This document shows positions 2,291 to 13,781 of a stretch of DNA of 14,011 nucleotides, one piece after another. A program made the position numbers and the translations under genes. A model generated the notes under the pieces. That model made no database searches. It saw only the letters and a list, made by a program, of their open reading frames with translations, and was not told the DNA's origin. Each line of letters begins with the position of its first letter. Position 1 is the first letter of the stretch. The DNA is from a virus. Taxonomy: Duplodnaviria > Heunggongvirae > Uroviricota > Caudoviricetes. The DNA lies in the IMG/VR virus record IMGVR_UViG_2855308460_000004, one strand, 5' to 3'.

Positions 2291-4657
2291 ATGTTTAAAA
2301 ATAGATCGATGAAAAGAATGGTAGATAAAATTCTTAGCTACAGACTTAAAATGAATGCGTTATCTGATGAAGAGTTAAGAAGTAAAACATCAGAATTCAA
2401 AACGCGCATAAATAAAGGCGAGAGTCTTGAAAAAATCCTTCCAGAAGCGTTTGCAGTTGTGAGAGAAGCCGCAAGACGTACTCTTGGTATGGAGCATTTT
2501 CCCGTTCAGTTAATGGGAGGTATTGCCCTACATAAAGGATATATAGCTGAAATGAAAACTGGTGAAGGAAAAACACTTGTCTCTACCTGCCCGGCCTATC
2601 TGAACGCATTAACAGGAAAAAGTGTTTACGTAGTAACGGTCAATGATTATTTAGCAAAGCGAGATGCTGAGATGATGGGCCAAGTCCATCGCTTTTTAGG
2701 TTTAACCGTTGGAACCGTATTAAGCGAAATGGGTACATTGGAGCGGAAAGATGCTTATCAATGTGATATTACCTATGTGACAAATAATGAATTGGGTTTT
2801 GATTATTTACGTGATAATATGGCAATGACAAAAGAACAGCAGGTCTTAAGAGGATTAAATTATTGTATCATTGATGAAGTAGACTCAGTGCTAATCGACG
2901 AAGCCAGAACTCCACTTATCATTTCTGGACAAAGTGACCGTTCAACCAGCCTTTATGTTGCAGCTGATTTTTTGGCGAAAAAACTACATAAGGGTGAACC
3001 ATCTAAAAAATACCGAAAAGTAGATATGCTGATGGGAGAAGATATTGAGGAAGATGGAGATTTCATCATAGAGGAAAAAGATAAAAATGTGCATTTGACT
3101 GCATATGGCGTTGATGAAGTCGAAAGATTCTTTCATATTGAGAATTTAGCAGATCCGGAAAATATTGATATACAACACCATATGAATATAGCGTTAAAAG
3201 CTAACTATATCATGAATATAGACAAGGACTATGTTGTTAAGGATAATGAGATTTTGATTGTGGATGAATTTACTGGAAGGACCATGCAGGGAAGAAGATA
3301 TTCAGATGGCCTTCATCAGGCAATTGAGGCGAAAGAGAATGTAGATATTAAGAAAGAATCACGTACGATGGCAACCATTACATTTCAGAACTTCTTTAAT
3401 AAGTTTGAAAAAAAAGCAGGTATGACAGGAACTGCCAAGACAGAAGAGAAAGAGTTCAAAAGTACCTACCATATGCCAGTCATAGAAATAGCAACAAATA
3501 AGCCAGTAATTCGTAAGGATTATGAAGATGTTGTATATAAAACCAAAAAAGAAAAATATGAAGCAATTATAAAATCAATTGAAGAATCTTATGAAAAAGG
3601 TCAGCCTGTTTTAGTAGGTACGATTACTATTGAAACATCAGAATACTTATCTAAGCTGTTGAAGAAAAAGGGAATTCCTCACAATGTCCTGAATGCCAAG
3701 CATATTGAAGAAGAGGCAGAAATCATCATGAATGCAGGAAAATTTAAGGCTGTTACGATTGCTACAAATATGGCTGGCCGAGGAACAGATATCAAATTGG
3801 ATGCAGATGCAAAAGATACAGGTGGTCTTAAAATAATTGGCACGGAACGTCATGAATCAAGACGTATTGATAATCAGCTCCGCGGTCGTTCTGGACGTCA
3901 GGGAGATCCAGGTGAATCAAGATTCTACATTTCCTTAGAAGATGACTTGATGAGGCTGTTCGGTTCGGAAAATATGAAACAGATGTTTGAAAAAGCAGGT
4001 ATAGAAGAAGGAGAAGAACTTCAGCACAAACTCCTTACAAAAACCATTGAAAACGCACAGAAACGGGTTGAAAATAATAACTATGGAATCCGTGAGCAAT
4101 TATTGAAATTTGATCAGGTCAATAATGAACAGCGTGAAATTATCTATGCTGAGCGAAATTTATTATTGGAACAGACTAGTGTTAAGGATACAATATTGGA
4201 AATGATGAAAAATAGCATTGACTTGATTATAGATGATTATTTTAAAGAAAAAGCAGAGCATACAGAAGTTGATTTTGAGGAAATGTTGATGAAGATTTTC
4301 GGCCTTATACCAATAAGAATGAATATAAAGGTATTAAATGCCTATACGAAAAAAGAACTGTTAAAATTTATGAATGAAGAAATTGAAGATTTTTATCACA
4401 AAATAGAACAGAAATTTGAAGACATTGAAGATTTAAGAGTAATGGAGCGGCGTATTTTTCTAAAAGTAATTGATATAAACTGGATGAACCATATTGACAA
4501 TATGGAAAAATTAAAAGAAAGTATATCTCTACAAGCATATGCAGGACATGATCCTGTGGTAGAATATAAACTCAATGTGTATGAAATGTTTGATGAAATG
4601 TTAAAAACAATTAGAAATGAAACAGTAAAAACAATAACACATATGGTTTATCAATAA
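2291..4657 (+). CDS. secA: Preprotein translocase ATPase SecA (orphan paralogue lacking the C-terminal tail and zinc-binding motif)
   Basis: MKTGEGKT Walker A, DEVDSVLIDEARTPLIISG, TNMAGRGTDI, GTERHESRRIDNQLRGRSGRQGDPG. 788 aa ending TITHMVYQ with no GRNDPCPCGSGKKYK.CC. Confidence 0.97.
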   Translation: MFKNRSMKRMVDKILSYRLKMNALSDEELRSKTSEFKTRINKGESLEKILPEAFAVVREAARRTLGMEHFPVQLMGGIALHKGYIAEMKTGEGKTLVSTCPAYLNALTGKSVYVVTVNDYLAKRDAEMMGQVHRFLGLTVGTVLSEMGTLERKDAYQCDITYVTNNELGFDYLRDNMAMTKEQQVLRGLNYCIIDEVDSVLIDEARTPLIISGQSDRSTSLYVAADFLAKKLHKGEPSKKYRKVDMLMGEDIEEDGDFIIEEKDKNVHLTAYGVDEVERFFHIENLADPENIDIQHHMNIALKANYIMNIDKDYVVKDNEILIVDEFTGRTMQGRRYSDGLHQAIEAKENVDIKKESRTMATITFQNFFNKFEKKAGMTGTAKTEEKEFKSTYHMPVIEIATNKPVIRKDYEDVVYKTKKEKYEAIIKSIEESYEKGQPVLVGTITIETSEYLSKLLKKKGIPHNVLNAKHIEEEAEIIMNAGKFKAVTIATNMAGRGTDIKLDADAKDTGGLKIIGTERHESRRIDNQLRGRSGRQGDPGESRFYISLEDDLMRLFGSENMKQMFEKAGIEEGEELQHKLLTKTIENAQKRVENNNYGIREQLLKFDQVNNEQREIIYAERNLLLEQTSVKDTILEMMKNSIDLIIDDYFKEKAEHTEVDFEEMLMKIFGLIPIRMNIKVLNAYTKKELLKFMNEEIEDFYHKIEQKFEDIEDLRVMERRIFLKVIDINWMNHIDNMEKLKESISLQAYAGHDPVVEYKLNVYEMFDEMLKTIRNETVKTITHMVYQ

Positions 4658-4805: not shown

Positions 4806-5288
4806 ATGAACGTTAAATTTTCTGACCAGGAACTGTATCTTGATGCAAATTCAATTTTTTTAGCTGGGCCAACAATGAGGAATAGTACTTTTTCAAAATC
4901 CTGGAGAAAAAAAGCATGTATGATTCTTGAAGAATTCAAATTCGATGGAACTGTATATGTTCCTGAATATTATTCCAACAAGGAATTTGAAGATGATGCT
5001 TATATTAATCAGACAAAGTGGGAGTGGGAATGCCTGGATATAGCAGGTGTAATCGTATTCTGGGTACCTAGACAGATGAAGGATATGCCTGCATTGACAA
5101 CGAACATTGAGTTTGGTAGATACCTGACGAAAAAAAAAGATTCTGTAATTCTAGGGTACCCAAGATACACAGAAAAGATGAAGTATATGGACCTTCTTTA
5201 TCGGACAGAAACGGGAAGAATCCCAGAAACAACTTTGGGTGGAACTCTTAAAAATGCAGTATCACAATTAGATTACTTAAACGAATAA
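4806..5288 (+). CDS. Nucleoside 2-deoxyribosyltransferase-like protein (Nuc_deoxyri_tr2-type)
   Basis: SIFLAGPT.R....SWR, VYVPE, Q..WE...L..A.VIVFWVPR, MPALTTNIEFG with the family Glu retained. Confidence 0.85.
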   Translation: MNVKFSDQELYLDANSIFLAGPTMRNSTFSKSWRKKACMILEEFKFDGTVYVPEYYSNKEFEDDAYINQTKWEWECLDIAGVIVFWVPRQMKDMPALTTNIEFGRYLTKKKDSVILGYPRYTEKMKYMDLLYRTETGRIPETTLGGTLKNAVSQLDYLNE

Positions 5289-5305
5289 TATATTTTGTGT
5301 ACTTG

Positions 5306-5329
5306 AAAGAGGGCGTAAGCCTTCTTTTT
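5306..5329 (+). terminator. Intrinsic terminator
   Basis: AAAGAGGGC-GTAA-GCCTTCTTT plus TT (one G-U pair, GNRA loop). Confidence 0.85.
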
Positions 5330-5666: not shown

Positions 5667-6215
5667 ATGAAAGAGAAAATTTTAGTAGTAGTAGATATGC
5701 AATATGATTTTGTTTATGGGAGTTTAGGAACACCGGAAGCACAGGCAATTGTACCTAAGGTTATTGAAAAAGTCACTAATTTTGATGGAACCGTAGTGTT
5801 TACCAGAGATACCCATGAAGAAGACTATTTAGAAACATTTGAAGGGAAAAAACTGCCAGTGGTTCATTGTGTTGAAGGAACGTCTGGATGGGAAATCATA
5901 ACAGAAATTTTAAACGCTGGAAGTTTTAAGCGTCCACAAAAGGATTTATCATGGATATACGACAAAACAACATTTGGCTGTATTAATCTGGCAAAGGATA
6001 TCCAAAACAAATTATTCATTGAACAGGATGAGCTGGAAATTGAGTTAATTGGACTTTGCACAGATATTTGTGTTGTTACAAATGCTTTATTATTAAGGGC
6101 TTATATGCCAGAGGTACCTATTAGGGTTGACTCAAGTTGCTGTGCAGGAGTTACAAAAGAAACACATGAGGCAGCCTTGAAAACGATGCAGATGTGTCAA
6201 ATCGATATAGTTTAA
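5667..6215 (+). CDS. pncA: Nicotinamidase (isochorismatase-family cysteine hydrolase)
   Basis: VVDMQYDF (Asp), TRDTH and HC metal ligands, DKTTFG (Lys), GLCTDICV (Cys); directly upstream of pncB. Confidence 0.9.
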   Translation: MKEKILVVVDMQYDFVYGSLGTPEAQAIVPKVIEKVTNFDGTVVFTRDTHEEDYLETFEGKKLPVVHCVEGTSGWEIITEILNAGSFKRPQKDLSWIYDKTTFGCINLAKDIQNKLFIEQDELEIELIGLCTDICVVTNALLLRAYMPEVPIRVDSSCCAGVTKETHEAALKTMQMCQIDIV

Positions 6216-6269: not shown

Positions 6270-7742
6270 ATGAAAACACAGAGCGCAGAAAGAAATTTAA
6301 GCATGATTATGGATTTTTATGAGTTAACAATGGCAAATGGGTATTTCAAACATATGGACAGAAATGTGCAGGTTGCATTTGATGTTTTTTACCGTAAAAA
6401 TCCTGATAATGGTGGATATGCAATTTATGCCGGACTTAAGCAAATCATTGATTATATAAAAGCGTTGCATTTTGATGAAGATGATATTGCTTATTTGAAA
6501 TCACAGGATTTATTTGACAAGGATTTTCTTGATTATTTACGGCACTTTGCATTTACAGGAAGCGTTTGGTCATTTGATGAGGGAGAGATTATGTACCCTA
6601 ATGAACCAGTTATCACAGTAATTGCACCACTTATTGAGGCACAGCTTGTAGAGACAGCCATCCTGTTACAGTTTAATCATCAGAGCTTAATTGCAACTAA
6701 GACCAATCGTATAGTGCAGGCCGCAGATGGAAGAGGTGTGTCTGATTTTGGAGCCAGAAGAGCTCATAACATGGATGCCGCAGTATATGGAGCAAGAGCG
6801 GCTTATATTGGTGGAGCAATCGGAACAGCAACTGTACTTGCTGGACAGATGTTTGATATTCCGATTAGTGGAACGATGGCGCATAGTTGGGTTATGTTTT
6901 ATCCGGATGAATACACAGCTTTTAAAACATATGCTTTAACATACCCAGATGCAACAACATTGCTAGTGGATACCTATAATGTTTTGGAAAGTGGTGTCCC
7001 TAATGCAATCCGAGTAGCGAAAGAAGTGCTGGAGCCAATGGGAAAGCGGCTAAAGGGAATCAGATTGGATAGTGGTGACCTTGCTTACCTATCTAAAAAA
7101 TCTAGGAAGATGTTAGACGAAGCCGGTCTAACTGATTGTAAAATTGTGGTATCAAACAGTCTGGATGAATATACAATCCGTTCCCTTATTAATCAGGGAG
7201 CATGTATTGACTTATTTGGTGTTGGCGAGCGATTGATTACAGCTAAATCAGATCCTGTGTTCGGTGGAGTCTACAAACTTAGTGCAGTAGAAGAAAATGG
7301 CGAATTCAAGCCAAGAATTAAAATTTCTGAGAACGTAGAAAAAGTTACCAATCCAGGTCTTAAGCGAGTCTGGAGAATCATGAACAAGGATGGTATTGGA
7401 GTTGGTGATTTATTAACTTTATGGGATGAAGATCCTAGAGATACAGCTGGCTCTTATGAAGTGATTGACACCCGAAATCCTTGGAAGAAAGTGGTTCTTG
7501 ACCATTGTAGTTTTGTTCCATTACAAAAACTTTATATTAAGGAAGGACGAGAAACTAATGAGTGTGAATATCTGAGTAATACAAAATATATAAAGGAACA
7601 TGTCGCGAAGCGTCTTAAGCATGAAGTTTGGGATGAAGAAAAACGTTTTGAAAACCCACATCTCCATTATCTTGATATGTCACCCGCTTTATACAAATTA
7701 AAGATGGATATGTTAAATGAGCATGGAGCAATTGAAAAATGA
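6270..7742 (+). CDS. pncB: Nicotinate phosphoribosyltransferase
   Basis: DFYELTM, DFGARRAH, GTMAHSW (phospho-His), LLVDTY, IRLDSGDL, GGVYKL. Confidence 0.97.
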   Translation: MKTQSAERNLSMIMDFYELTMANGYFKHMDRNVQVAFDVFYRKNPDNGGYAIYAGLKQIIDYIKALHFDEDDIAYLKSQDLFDKDFLDYLRHFAFTGSVWSFDEGEIMYPNEPVITVIAPLIEAQLVETAILLQFNHQSLIATKTNRIVQAADGRGVSDFGARRAHNMDAAVYGARAAYIGGAIGTATVLAGQMFDIPISGTMAHSWVMFYPDEYTAFKTYALTYPDATTLLVDTYNVLESGVPNAIRVAKEVLEPMGKRLKGIRLDSGDLAYLSKKSRKMLDEAGLTDCKIVVSNSLDEYTIRSLINQGACIDLFGVGERLITAKSDPVFGGVYKLSAVEENGEFKPRIKISENVEKVTNPGLKRVWRIMNKDGIGVGDLLTLWDEDPRDTAGSYEVIDTRNPWKKVVLDHCSFVPLQKLYIKEGRETNECEYLSNTKYIKEHVAKRLKHEVWDEEKRFENPHLHYLDMSPALYKLKMDMLNEHGAIEK

Positions 7743-8245
7743 TTATAAGTGGATTTGCCGGGATAGGGAAGACTTATCTCGGCAATAAATATAAGGATAT
7801 CATAGATTTGGAATCCTCTGACTATAAATGGGTTTATTCAGATGAATTAAATGGTATGGATAGGGAAAAACGGAAAGGCTTAACAGAGCGCCTCTTTAAT
7901 CCTGAATGGCCAGAAAACTATATTAATGCGATTCTGGAAACAAAGAAAAAATATAAAATTGTATTGATATCGCAGAGTATTGAGATTTTGGCAGAATTAC
8001 GATTAAGAAAAATACCATTCATTGTTGTAATACCGGATATAAACTTAAAAGAAGAATATATTGCAAGATGTAGGAAACGAGGAAATAACGAAGTCTTTAT
8101 AGGATTTATTTCTGATTATTACGAATACTTTATCAATAAACTGATGAGTAAGGATGATCCAAAAGTTATCTTAAAGTCAGGTGAATATCTAGAAGATGTT
8201 CTAATCAAGGAAGGATATTATAAGGAGAGAGAAGATGGATTATAA
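7739..8245 (+). CDS. Uncharacterised P-loop NTPase, probable small-molecule/NMP kinase fold
   Basis: Walker A GFAGIGKT (7751-7774), IDLESSDY, lid-like EYIARCRKRGN; 4-nt ATGA overlap with pncB and 11-nt overlap with nadE. Confidence 0.85.
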   Translation: MIISGFAGIGKTYLGNKYKDIIDLESSDYKWVYSDELNGMDREKRKGLTERLFNPEWPENYINAILETKKKYKIVLISQSIEILAELRLRKIPFIVVIPDINLKEEYIARCRKRGNNEVFIGFISDYYEYFINKLMSKDDPKVILKSGEYLEDVLIKEGYYKEREDGL

Positions 8246-10181
8246 TAAATATTTCATAAGGGCAGCTGTGGCAACACCTAAGATAAAAGTTGCGGATACA
8301 GAATTTAATTCTGAGGCAATTGTAAATTTAATTCTGGAAGCAGAAAAAAATCAGGTTAAAATATTAGTACTGCCTGAACTATGTGTGACAGGATATACAT
8401 GCCAGGATTTATTTCTTCAGAAGACATTGCTAACTGAAGCATATAAATCAGTGAACCATATAATGACAAAAACATCGAAGTGTAATTGTCTTGCTGTTAT
8501 TGGATTCCCATATGAACATAATGGAAAACTTTATAATGTTGCCGGACTTTTAAAAAATGGAAAAATGCTCGCAATTGTCCCTAAGGTTTATCTACCGAAC
8601 TATCAGGAGTTTTATGAAGCCAGGCATTTTGCAAAAGGGAAAACAAAAGTAGAATATGTAGATTGGGTCAACCCACATGAAACTTATCCATATGAAGTAC
8701 CATTTGGCACAAATATTCTATTAAGAAACAAAGTGATGGATGTTATAATCGGAACGGAAATTTGTGAGGATTTATGGGTGCCGGATCCAATAAGTACGAA
8801 ACATGCATTAGCAGGTGCCAATATTATTGTTAATCCATCTGCATCAAATGAAATTATAGGGAAAAGAGCTTATCGAAAACAGTTAGTCGAGACCCAGTCT
8901 GCAAGGCTTATTGCAGCATACATATATGCAAGTGCAGGAGAGGGTGAATCTACTCAGGATTTAGTCTTTAGCGGCCATAATTTGATTGCAGAAAATGGAA
9001 CAATATTAGGAGAGCGGAAGTATGAAACAGGAAAATTGTTAATCAGAGATATTGACATTGAAAAACTGAATGCGGAGCGAAGAAGAACAACCACATATGA
9101 AACAGACAATCAGGACTATACAATAGTTGATTTTGAATATGAAAAAAAAGAAATTCAAAAAGTAAGTTTAAAAAGATTCATACCAGCTTCACCATTCGTG
9201 CCTTCAGATGAGCTTACAAGAATAGAAAGATGTAAGGAAATCATGCTACTGCAATCCTTAGGACTGAAAAAACGGATGGAACATATTGGTTGTAAAAAGA
9301 CAGTGATTGGAGTATCTGGAGGTCTTGATTCAACCTTGGCATTACTTATTATCAACAAGACATATGAAGCACTTGGACTTCCTAAAGATGGAATTCTGGC
9401 TGTCACGATGCCGTGTTATGGGACAACAAACCGTACATATGAAAATGCATGTGACTTGGCAAAAGAGATTGGCTGTACACTAATGGAAATCCCAATAAGG
9501 GAATCTGTAACACAGCATCTAAAAGATATCGGACACGATATGGAAAATCATGATGTGACATATGAAAATGCTCAGGCAAGAGAGCGGACACAGGTATTAA
9601 TGGATCTTGCTAACCAGGAAAATGCAATTGTTGTTGGAACAGGAGATTTGTCTGAACTGGCATTGGGATGGTGTACTTATAATGGAGACCACATGTCAAT
9701 GTATGCTGTCAATGCAGATGTTCCAAAAACCCTTGTCCGTTACCTGGTTGATTATTATGCACATGCTGAAAGCAGTGAAGCATTAAAAAAGACACTTTGC
9801 GATATCCTTGAGACTCCGGTATCGCCTGAATTGCTTCCTCCAGATAAAGGCGGGAAGATAATTCAAAAAACGGAAGAGAAGATTGGACCATATGAACTAC
9901 ATGACTTCTTTTTATATTACATGATGCGATATGGATTTGGTCCAGAGAAGACATTTATTTTAGCAAGAGAAGCATTCAGCGGAACATACACAGAAGAAAC
10001 AATACTTAAATGGATGAAAGTATTTTATAAAAGATTCTTCAGCCAGCAGTTTAAGCGTTCCTGCTTGCCGGATGGCCCGAAAATTGGTTCTGTCAGTCTG
10101 TCTCCACGAGGAGATTTAAGAATGCCAAGTGATGCAAGTGTTAACCTTTGGATGAAAGAGTTGGATGGAATAGTCTTATAA
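8235..10181 (+). CDS. nadE: Glutamine-dependent NAD+ synthetase
   Basis: Nitrilase-like N-domain with the Glu-Lys-Cys triad (LPEL, VPKVYLPNY, EICEDLW) and synthetase domain GVSGGLDST, YENAQARER, GTGDLSE, PVSPEL. Confidence 0.97.
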   Translation: MDYNKYFIRAAVATPKIKVADTEFNSEAIVNLILEAEKNQVKILVLPELCVTGYTCQDLFLQKTLLTEAYKSVNHIMTKTSKCNCLAVIGFPYEHNGKLYNVAGLLKNGKMLAIVPKVYLPNYQEFYEARHFAKGKTKVEYVDWVNPHETYPYEVPFGTNILLRNKVMDVIIGTEICEDLWVPDPISTKHALAGANIIVNPSASNEIIGKRAYRKQLVETQSARLIAAYIYASAGEGESTQDLVFSGHNLIAENGTILGERKYETGKLLIRDIDIEKLNAERRRTTTYETDNQDYTIVDFEYEKKEIQKVSLKRFIPASPFVPSDELTRIERCKEIMLLQSLGLKKRMEHIGCKKTVIGVSGGLDSTLALLIINKTYEALGLPKDGILAVTMPCYGTTNRTYENACDLAKEIGCTLMEIPIRESVTQHLKDIGHDMENHDVTYENAQARERTQVLMDLANQENAIVVGTGDLSELALGWCTYNGDHMSMYAVNADVPKTLVRYLVDYYAHAESSEALKKTLCDILETPVSPELLPPDKGGKIIQKTEEKIGPYELHDFFLYYMMRYGFGPEKTFILAREAFSGTYTEETILKWMKVFYKRFFSQQFKRSCLPDGPKIGSVSLSPRGDLRMPSDASVNLWMKELDGIVL

Positions 10182-10206
10182 AAAAGAGAGGAAATCCTCT
10201 CTTTTT
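10181..10206. terminator. Bidirectional intrinsic terminator between nadE and the Uma2 gene
   Basis: AAAAAGAGAGG-AAAT-CCTCTCTTTTT, a perfect 11-bp stem. Confidence 0.92.
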
Positions 10207-10755
10207 TTATATATTTTCAAAAATATCAGTAAGTTTGAGCTGTATATTAGGAAAAGATAGCATAGTGATTTCCAGGTCGGCATTGTAATCAGAATCGTGA
10301 GGATCATCAACCAATATAAAATAGTTAATAAGCTGATACATATCATTTTGTAAGTGATAGATTTCTATACTGCGTGAATTAACATCGATTATCCAATATT
10401 CCTCCACCTTCATTTTTTGATATAATTCTTTTTTTATGGTCTTATCTTTTAATGCAGTGGCCGGACTAAGAGTCTCAGCGATGAATTTAGGAATTCCAAG
10501 ATATTGTCCCTTTTGGATTTTTTTACGATCGCACACAACCATTACATCAGGTATGACATAATCGCTTTTTTCACGATCATATTTCCAATCTAAATTTTCA
10601 GCAAACACAAGACACAGGCTTCCTTTTAATGAGCTTGATATCAGTCTATATAAATTCAAATTAACAGTTCCATGTCTGTAATCGGCAGATGGAGACATAT
10701 CAAAGACTATTCCTTCGATAAATTCCTGCTTGCTATAATCATCTAATAATGGCAT
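10207..10755 (-). CDS. Uma2 family (DUF820) PD-(D/E)XK endonuclease-like protein
   Basis: EFIEG..FDMSP....HG, VIPDVMVVCD, PKFIAETLSP.T...D...K..LY....VEEYWIID; RBS GGAGGTG. Confidence 0.92.
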   Translation of the reverse strand: MPLLDDYSKQEFIEGIVFDMSPSADYRHGTVNLNLYRLISSSLKGSLCLVFAENLDWKYDREKSDYVIPDVMVVCDRKKIQKGQYLGIPKFIAETLSPATALKDKTIKKELYQKMKVEEYWIIDVNSRSIEIYHLQNDMYQLINYFILVDDPHDSDYNADLEITMLSFPNIQLKLTDIFENI

Positions 10756-12692: not shown

Positions 12693-13781
12693 ATGAAAAC
12701 TATTAAAATTATGATGACAACGATGTTATTAACAATGTTGTTCTGTATTACATCATTTGCGGATCAAAAGAAAATCACCTCTGTCTCTGTTTCTTTGTAT
12801 GAAACAAAAGCAGAAGCAGGAACTATCTATGAAGTAGAACCAAGGGTTAGTTCGAGCTCATATGAGCTGGTAGATTATACTGTATCTAAGGATTATAGTG
12901 AATGGAAACCCGGTTCGAAAGTGACATATGAATTAACCATAGAGCCAAAGGAAGGATATAAATTTGATACCTCAAAAATCAAAAAGATTAGTGTATCAAA
13001 TGGTGAAGCTGTAAGTAAAACGATTAAAAGCAGCAAGATAACCGTTAAAGTGAATTATGTTCCCAAAGTAACACTTGAGGATCCCACCAACTTGTATTTT
13101 GAAGATGAATATTTAGCAGAGTGGGACAAAGTAGAATATTGTAAGATGTACGAAGTACAGATTCTTAAGGAAAATGATAATGGTGACTATAAATCTTATA
13201 AAACCGTAAAAGTAACAAAGCCGGAAATTGATTTGTCTTCTTATGCAACCGATGAATATGATATCAGTTTTAAAGTAAGGGCAATTGCAAAGGATTCTGA
13301 CCAGTCCAAATATCTGAAATCATCCAATTGGGTAGATTTTAATAATTCCGTATCTGCAGATGATAATACAACATATGGGAATTTTTCTGGCAGTGGTGAA
13401 AACCTGGTATTCAAAGATTCAGAAGGTAAAGTATCTGGTTGGCAGCAGATCAATGGAAATTGGTACTACTTTGACCCGAACAATGGAAACAAAGCAGTTG
13501 TTTCTAATTGGGTGAATCAGAACGGACAGTGGTTTTATTGTAATGAATTTGGAATCATGTTAACTGGCTGGGTGCAGCTCAACGGGTACTGGTATTATCT
13601 AAATCCGATATCAGATGGCACAAGAGGAGCGGCTAAAACCGGATGGCTCTGTGCAGGGCCGAGTGGACCATGGTATTACTTCCAGGAAGGAGTAAATGGG
13701 CCATTACCAGAAGGCGCAATGTATGCTAACTGTAATACACCAGACGGTTTTTATGTAGACGCGAATGGAGAATGGAGATAG
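12693..13781 (+). CDS. Secreted cell-wall-binding repeat protein (Lachnospiraceae type) with beta-rich, FN3-like N-terminal domains
   Basis: Signal peptide ending TSFA/D; C-terminal repeats GWQQINGNWYYF, NWVNQNGQWFY, TGWVQLNGYWYYL, TGW...GPWYYF and terminal TPDGFYVDANGEW. No catalytic domain recognised. Confidence 0.9.
   Translation: MKTIKIMMTTMLLTMLFCITSFADQKKITSVSVSLYETKAEAGTIYEVEPRVSSSSYELVDYTVSKDYSEWKPGSKVTYELTIEPKEGYKFDTSKIKKISVSNGEAVSKTIKSSKITVKVNYVPKVTLEDPTNLYFEDEYLAEWDKVEYCKMYEVQILKENDNGDYKSYKTVKVTKPEIDLSSYATDEYDISFKVRAIAKDSDQSKYLKSSNWVDFNNSVSADDNTTYGNFSGSGENLVFKDSEGKVSGWQQINGNWYYFDPNNGNKAVVSNWVNQNGQWFYCNEFGIMLTGWVQLNGYWYYLNPISDGTRGAAKTGWLCAGPSGPWYYFQEGVNGPLPEGAMYANCNTPDGFYVDANGEWR
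13437..13778 (+). repeat. About four degenerate aromatic-rich cell-wall-binding protein repeats
   Basis: Repeated GW...NG.WYY pattern in the translation. Confidence 0.85.

Follow-up and report, generated by a model that had tools for sequence, protein, structure and literature searches.

A P-loop kinase-fold protein of the phage family PHROG 4182 encoded between pncB and nadE, with a possible accessory role in NAD salvage

Between pncB and nadE, in a 14,011-nucleotide stretch of DNA filed in IMG/VR as the virus record IMGVR_UViG_2855308460_000004 (hereafter the window), lies a gene that we call X (positions 7739-8245, + strand). We confirmed that X is a real, selected gene encoding a protein of the P-loop kinase fold, and that it represents a distinct, uncharacterised family inside a well-known fold and reaction class. 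In one lineage of the Lachnospiraceae, namely, relatives of Hungatella and Lacrimispora, X is fixed directly behind pncB, amid other genes for nicotinamide adenine dinucleotide (NAD) and ADP-ribose metabolism, and for this clade an NAD-related role is therefore plausible. The features of the locus are the following.

7739..8245, + strand: X, a 168-residue P-loop kinase-fold protein of PHROG 4182 (translation of the open reading frame, family profile, structural model and conservation).
6270..7742, + strand: pncB, nicotinate phosphoribosyltransferase (NF006695, E 1.5e-196, 653.7 bits, with the cut-off at 469).
8235..10181, + strand: nadE, glutamine-dependent NAD+ synthetase with CN_hydrolase and NAD_synthase domains (NF002730, E 6e-259, 860.8 bits).
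5667..6215, + strand: isochorismatase-family gene, presumably the nicotinamidase gene pncA, first of the unit (PF00857, E 1.4e-21).
4806..5288, + strand: nucleoside 2-deoxyribosyltransferase-like gene, upstream of pncA (PF15891).
10180..10207, + strand: terminator-like hairpin closing the pncA-pncB-X-nadE unit, shared with a convergent Uma2 gene.
5305-5328: terminator-like site 3' of the nucleoside 2-deoxyribosyltransferase-like gene.

Direct reading of the open reading frame (ORF) gave exactly 7739-8245 and 168 residues, and the overlaps with both neighbours that the initial annotation had reported are present. The pncB stop codon (7740-7742) overlaps the X start codon (7739-7741) as ATGA (4 nucleotides), whereas the nadE ATG, at 8235, lies 11 nucleotides inside the 3' end of X, behind a GGAG. 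We propose that X is co-translated with pncB and nadE. A hairpin scan of the window found no + strand terminator-like site between 5329 and 10179, and since the genes are flanked by hairpins at 5305-5328 and 10180-10207 with none between them on this strand, the data support a single pncA-pncB-X-nadE transcription unit. A comparison of the window with Rfam detected no element.

When compared with orthologues in related contigs, X has a ratio of non-synonymous to synonymous substitution rates (dN/dS) of 0.09-0.17, against 0.04-0.14 for pncB and 0.10-0.11 for nadE, such that purifying selection acts on X with a strength in the range of that on its neighbours. This low dN/dS, together with hundreds of homologues and a confident AlphaFold2 model (pLDDT 91.6, pTM 0.85), marks X as a real gene. 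The protein carries the Walker A motif GxxGxGKT noticed from the outset, in the form GFAGIGKT (residues 5-12, G5-F-A-G-I-G10-K11-T12), directly after strand 1; G10 and K11 are invariant among 105 family members, and in the same set conservation reaches at least 90% at D23, E43, K46, P58, Y61, P99, R110, R114, G115 and N116. The basic segment RCRKRGN (residues 110-116), at first described only as lid-like, proved to be a conserved feature as well: since R110, R114, G115 and N116 are kept family-wide, RxxxRGN is a true lid-type family signature and no chance basic patch. The secondary structure of the model, with a helix at 101-113, suggests that R110 and R114 belong to the lid.

Further motifs of X are ExRKG at 43-47, NPxWPxNY at 54-61 and D23-L-E25, which comes after the second strand (modelled by AlphaFold2 at residues 21-23); among 35 close relatives D23 never varies, and conservation is 90% or more at E25 and S26. 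An acidic motif after strand 2 is a mark of the hydroxyl-directed P-loop kinases, that is, shikimate, gluconate, polynucleotide, nicotinamide riboside (NRK) and uridine kinases, whereas in nucleoside monophosphate (NMP) kinases Arg/Thr motifs at the end of strand 2 hold the phosphate of the NMP. By analogy, D23-x-E25 would fit a hydroxyl kinase better than an NMP kinase. In agreement with this, the sole sequence-level match of the X family profile among solved structures is shikimate kinase 1via (E 1e-4, residues 3-47), in a segment that spans the P-loop and the acidic strand-2 motif.

Foldseek matched the model of X to P-loop kinases over its full length with probability 1.0 (AK6, Gmk, NRK1 and TmrB), at template modelling (TM) scores of about 0.5 to AK6/Fap7, TmrB, Gmk and NRK1, and VIA-align gave Z scores of 8-9 over residues 1-162 for GK-like domains, Trl1, Pnkp, UMP kinase, PSTK, TmrB and gluconate kinase. 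The core, as seen in the AlphaFold2 model, Foldseek and VIA-align, is the five-stranded parallel alpha/beta arrangement of kinase type. Searches by fold of pdb, Swiss-Prot AFDB, VIA-align wide, BFVD and Atlas put X in the P-loop kinase fold, and no subfamily was singled out. The description of X as an uncharacterised P-loop kinase is thus borne out by the fold searches, the Walker A motif and the lack of any significant match in Pfam (E up to 1), NCBIfam or the PDB sequences, while the comparison with NadR-C, PhnN and adenylate and guanylate kinases that had been suggested for it recovered the kinase fold but not a preferred subfamily. The hidden Markov models (HMMs) of Pfam and NCBIfam that fail to match X include ADK, Guanylate_kin, Cytidylate_kin, Thymidylate_kin, PhnN, AAA_28, PRK and dNK.

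X resembles the hydroxyl-directed kinases, namely, shikimate and gluconate kinases, T4 Pnk/Trl1/Pnkp, TmrB and PSTK, in its RxxxR lid, and these enzymes are among its top VIA-align rows (Z 8-9). It differs from them in having D-x-E in place of D-x-D, in the unique ExRKG and NPxWPxNY motifs of its substrate-binding insert, and in belonging to none of their Pfam or NCBIfam models. The individual Z scores, which place the Trl1 kinase domain (9.2), the Clostridium Pnkp kinase (8.3) and T4 Pnk (7.5) among the best structural matches, could also point to a kinase directed at nucleic acids or signals, that is, a polynucleotide 5'-OH kinase or a kinase of an ADP-ribose derivative in phage-host conflict. 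Homologues do occur in phage early regions, and Macro-SIR2 and ADP-ribosylglycohydrolase genes are found in the neighbourhoods of the pncB-linked copies. Yet one phage with an X homologue (L007) already has Rnl1 and a separate AAA_33 kinase, the neighbours of cellular X genes are small-molecule enzymes and transporters, and PADLOC gave only chance-level matches to X, none of them significant; we therefore hold such a role to be improbable.

A similar weighing applies to the NMP-type kinases. X could act on an NMP, for instance adenosine monophosphate (AMP) released by NadE or PncB, or serve as a phage deoxynucleoside monophosphate kinase, given that its fold matches include AK6/Fap7, guanylate and uridylate kinases, that some homologues are automatically annotated as 'guanylate kinase' or 'nucleotide kinase', and that X adjoins adk in several loci of metagenome-assembled genomes (MAGs). 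With PhnN and guanylate kinase it shares the P-loop kinase fold (GK-like domains at Z 9.2; Gmk among the Swiss-Prot Foldseek matches), but neither PF00625 nor the adenylate kinase model PF00406, nor the other NMP kinase HMMs listed above, matches it, and its conserved strand-2 motif is D-x-E and not of the Arg/Thr kind. Nor was displacement of the cellular enzymes seen, since X-bearing genomes retain their own Gmk and Cmk, and a canonical Adk stands beside the X homologues in the MAG loci just mentioned. In five distant X-bearing genomes, a sample too small and MAGs too incomplete to reveal kinase displacement, we found Gmk in 5/5, Cmk in 5/5, Tmk in 3/5, PRK in 4/5, NadD in 4/5 and a dNK-family kinase above cut-off in 0/5. 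An NMP kinase is accordingly given little probability, and the suggestion that X recycles the AMP released by NadE found no specific support.

The genomic context of X was compared among relatives with at least 60% amino-acid identity to it and a visible neighbourhood. In all of them, as in the window, pncB is directly upstream of X. First, three metagenome contigs (L098-100) are near-identical to the window. Second, L001-3 have the order pncA, three small ORFs, pncB, X, a 141-residue ORF and nadE, with Macro-SIR2 further upstream. Third, L096 has pncA, a 90-residue ORF, pncB, X and an ADP-ribosylglycohydrolase gene; L095 has pncB-X-GNAT among HNH, RuvC-like, ParE and HipA genes, with neither pncA nor nadE; and L097, from Hungatella hathewayi, has Macro-SIR2 fragments, pncA, pncB, a remnant of X and nadE. 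Five loci (window, L001, L096, L097 and L099) retain the ATGA overlap, and L095 has a gap of 1 nucleotide. An isochorismatase-family gene upstream of pncB is also found in L001, L096 and L097, as well as in L129, L130 and L131, three related operons considered below. As a separate observation, DNA near-identical to positions 7600-8400 of the window is present in mouse-gut metagenome runs from several studies, so that the DNA seems to come from a member of the Lachnospiraceae that lives in the murine gut and is related to Hungatella.

In the tree of the family, the pncB-linked X sequences are monophyletic with 100/100 support. Cellular copies, including one linked to a transporter gene of the major facilitator superfamily (MFS), are sister to them, followed by viral clades. 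The association of this clade with NAD genes is thus real and of single origin. The window copy of X is chromosomal, inside an NAD operon, and the clade was not found in scans of viral collections, a scan of viral contigs for close relatives being empty. A side observation concerns the gene upstream of pncA: a Nuc_deoxyri_tr2/Nuc_deoxyrib_tr-like gene is kept there in the window (4806-5288), in L001 (1-70) and in L129 (3646-4179), and a phage-like contig carries a related gene (L010:4123-4647) two genes upstream of its X homologue. These genes may encode an N-glycosidase acting on NMPs, perhaps on nicotinamide mononucleotide (NMN) or nicotinic acid mononucleotide (NaMN).

The wider family is large and mostly phage-borne. 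X is a direct member, by profile match, of PHROG 4182 (E 4.2e-35, 122.5 bits, residues 2-158), a group annotated as phage proteins of unknown function, from whose phage members the window copy differs in its chromosomal, NAD-linked setting. An exhaustive HMMER search retrieved 1,879 cluster representatives at E of 1e-3 or below and 707 at E of 1e-10 or below, the roughly 1,900 representatives being counted at 50% identity. tblastn found homologues in 205 phage records, nearly all annotated as 'hypothetical', including T5-like Epseptimavirus, AR9/PBS1, phiR1-37, Staphylococcus phage S6, Clostridium phage c-st, T4-like Acinetobacter phages and jumbo Erwinia and Serratia phages; the phage copies sit in clusters of small early genes. 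The look-alike clusters of X in the ESM Atlas are likewise mostly viral. Cellular homologues occur in small-genome Clostridia and Bacilli of gut and rumen, in Alphaproteobacteria and in Patescibacteria. Some homologues are longer than X; ten of their N- or C-terminal extensions were scanned with Pfam and showed no significant domain, and in the literature we found no characterisation of the family.

In many RF39-like and Bacilli MAGs an ORF of 82-102 residues that also matches X sits directly upstream of the full-length homologue (L029, L030, L033, L034, L046, L050, L051, L054, L055 and L064), and several of them have a ylqF-like GTPase gene, rnhB and topA after the pair. The short ORF may be a truncated tandem paralogue or one part of a split gene.

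To place these homologues in context, we surveyed 80 loci from species-representative genomes, with a range of 8 kb, and 27 viral loci from IMG/VR. A gene fusing NT5C to an inosine-uridine (IU) nucleoside hydrolase is directly upstream of X in eight genome loci, and His_Phos_1 is directly downstream in eight genome loci; other recurrent neighbours are HAD phosphatases, PHP, NUDIX and HD genes, MFS and EamA transporters and a second, AAA_18-type kinase. X is also found fused, to NUDIX (P0139) and to Qng1/Q_salvage (P0136). The latter fusion is a 473-residue ORF (L132:5326-6747) with a PHP gene directly upstream, and it is kept in six clusters (P0136 and its relatives P0305-P0309) at 81-100% identity. 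In the Atlas, the full length of the X model aligned (TM 0.87) to a GT2+NUDIX cluster of Saccharimonadota with a 640-residue representative, which suggests a further X-like fusion. Together, the contexts of the family fit a riboside or nucleoside salvage kinase better than any other single idea, which is a matter of fit and not proof. Qng1 hydrolyses queuosine-5'-monophosphate, the product of an 'unidentified kinase' (PMC9881137), and since its substrate thus calls for such an enzyme, the X::Qng1 fusion is a candidate bacterial queuosine kinase.

The same neighbours bear on the suggestion that X supplies phosphoribosyl pyrophosphate (PRPP), i.e., that its acceptor is ribose, ribose 1,5-bisphosphate or another such sugar phosphate, released by nucleoside, Nudix or ADP-ribose hydrolases, and that it so feeds PncB. 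Enzymes that release ribose or ribose 5-phosphate do recur beside X (IU_nuc_hydro, NUDIX, ADP_ribosyl_GH and Qng1), and pairing with the PRPP-consuming PncB would fit. Against it, X matches neither PhnN nor Gmk models, a single P-loop phosphoryl transfer cannot make PRPP from ribose 5-phosphate, and the conserved aromatic residues W57, Y61 and F120 suggest a ligand that bears a base. Having found no specific support for it, we regard PRPP supply as very improbable. This explanation, the NMP-type kinase and the nucleic-acid or ADP-ribose kinase are all minor alternatives, none with specific support.

Our tentative reading, which we put forward as possible and at well below even odds, is that in the pncB-linked clade X is an accessory hydroxyl-directed riboside kinase that feeds nicotinic acid riboside (NaR) or nicotinamide riboside (NR) into NAD salvage. 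The X family would phosphorylate the sugar hydroxyl of ribosides or nucleosides, and in the pncB-X-nadE operon the acceptor would be NaR and/or NR, yielding NaMN or NMN. X would thereby provide a side entrance to the Preiss-Handler route, converging with the product of PncB, and NadD, encoded elsewhere, would complete NAD together with NadE. Of the functions first suggested for X, a pyridine-riboside kinase is retained as the best single guess, on account of the clade fixed behind pncB, although the NAD linkage does not extend to the family as a whole. Broader still, and unlikely in our estimation, is that PHROG 4182 constitutes a new and widespread family of riboside 5'-kinases with clade-specific acceptors. 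The pncB clade would then add to the NR/NaR kinases a third type, not homologous to the others, and the Qng1-fused clade would be the queuosine kinase, long sought, whose product is queuosine-5'-monophosphate. In a more exotic version of this broad reading, the pncB-linked clade would act on a product derived from ADP-ribose, within a cell-borne or mobile genetic element-borne route of NAD reconstitution.

The riboside kinase reading must be set against several observations that weigh against it. First, the likeness of X to known enzymes of this kind is unspecific. Like NRK1/2, which are eukaryotic enzymes of the uridine-kinase family, and the C-terminal RNK domain of NadR (AAA_28), X is a small P-loop kinase with a lid, and it shares with them the acidic residue after strand 2, a gene linked to NAD salvage and a structural alignment over the whole protein. 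However, NRK1 (Z 6.8, TM 0.55) and NadR (Z 7.2-7.3) are no closer to X than many other, unrelated kinases; none of the AAA_28, PRK and dNK HMMs matches X; neither AAA_28 nor PRK is one of the 25 families to which most of the 105 family members match; and an Atlas lead from X to AAA_28 scored only 0.89. Moreover, unlike NadR and NRK, X lacks a fused NMNAT domain and a link to pnuC: no pnuC was seen in the window or among the called genes of related loci, and only 1/5 of the distant X-bearing genomes has PnuC. For comparison, the NARP3 pathway relies on PnuC and a NadR-like enzyme, not on an X-type kinase (PMC13464706).

Second, the single origin of the pncB-X pairing represents one evolutionary event only, and the two overlapping genes would move together irrespective of any joint function. 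Third, the initial annotation proposed a survey of homologues for linkage to NAD genes and took a lack of enrichment, along with inactivity of the purified protein, as grounds for abandoning its proposal; at the level of this mostly phage-borne family no such enrichment appeared, as NAD genes lie near X in 1/80 genome loci (L029, with pncA/pncB about 6 kb away) and in 0/27 IMG/VR loci. Fourth, three pncB-nadE operons of relatives (L129, L130 and L131) lack X, although their PncB branches inside the PncB clade of the X-bearing loci, and the PncB tree requires that X was gained or lost three times or more. The orders are NrtR ... pncA-pncB-hairpin-nadE in L130 and pncA ... pncB-hairpin-nadE in L131, with the hairpin alone between pncB and nadE in both, whereas L129, from Lacrimispora amygdalina, has four unrelated small ORFs there, including one for DUF551. 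Fifth, the X of Hungatella hathewayi (L097:6001-6366, GCA_964250555.1) is decayed: its P-loop has become GFAEIEKT (G8E, G10E), roughly residues 46-78 have been lost in frame, and an early stop cuts the C-terminus short, whereas the flanking pncB and nadE are intact.

X is therefore dispensable to the operon, also within its own clade, which argues against its being a missing step. Indeed, the idea that it occupies the position of the missing step is not sustained: X is no plausible stand-in for NadD, and the three operons above do without it, so that X is an addition to the operon and does not fill the place of NadD. The statement that X is not NadD, on the other hand, holds, given its P-loop kinase fold, its lack of a match to TIGR00482 or PF01467 and its complete lack of histidines. 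An analogue of NadD was likewise ruled out by the kinase fold and by the absence of histidine, with which no HxGH is possible; a likeness to the alpha-ribazole kinase CblS was dropped, as no evidence for it was found. We also noted that the co-directional gene cluster of L131, a locus without X, contains upstream of pncA and pncB a gene for a 365-residue AAA_28 (NadR-type) protein, cut by the end of the locus (L131:1-189); in this single case the AAA_28 gene may be a functional substitute for X.

The gaps between pncA, pncB and nadE are a hotspot for accessory small genes. Variable, small and co-directional ORFs occupy them in L129 (6465-7867), L001 (3673-4514 and 6494-6919), L096 (4254-4526) and L131 (3530-4849); one is DUF551-like, by a weak match, and Pfam gave no match for L001:6494-6919, L001:4242-4514 and L096:4254-4526. 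Insertion of X into unrelated conserved operons is also seen. In five small-genome Clostridia MAG loci (L036, L053, L059, L069 and L070), an X homologue, at about 8001-8480, and a phage-type DUF1064 gene form a cassette between secY and adk of the ribosomal spc operon, and L048 has the related order PHP-X-adk, with neither secY nor DUF1064. The cassette has the appearance of a mobile insertion, here in an operon that is highly expressed.

These observations give substance to a doubtful but serious competitor, according to which X is a generic phage-derived (deoxy)nucleoside or nucleotide salvage kinase that landed in the pncB-nadE hotspot and uses the operon for expression only, with no specific NAD role. 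Besides the hotspot, the secY-adk insertions, and the absence and decay of X in related operons, it agrees with the mainly viral family and its place in phage early-gene clusters, with the scarcity of NAD genes near homologues, and with the dNK-family kinase missing above cut-off from all five X-bearing small genomes. What it accounts for less readily is that X has been kept behind pncB, with overlap and purifying selection, while PncB diverged to about 72% identity, and that the pncB-X pair is intact in L095, with neither pncA nor nadE adjoining it, and lies beside an ADP-ribosylglycohydrolase gene in L096.

Elsewhere in the window, a gene at 2291-4657 encodes a 788-residue SecA, which adjoins accessory-type genes (DUF1810 and a zinc-ribbon protein) and might be an accessory SecA2; a choline-binding-repeat protein is encoded downstream of it, at 12693-13781.

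The X family spans many large phages and small-genome gut bacteria that are apparently dependent on salvage, and it has no Pfam model. If X merely rides in the operon, it would be an ordinary phage-derived accessory kinase in a hotspot of inserted genes. If instead NR or NaR is its acceptor, X would open a new way into the bacterial salvage of NAD, a resource contested in phage defence, and should the Qng1 fusion indicate a queuosine kinase, the family would offer a candidate for the still-unassigned step of queuine salvage. Assignment of the acceptor would annotate thousands of genes now called 'hypothetical' or misnamed 'guanylate kinase'.

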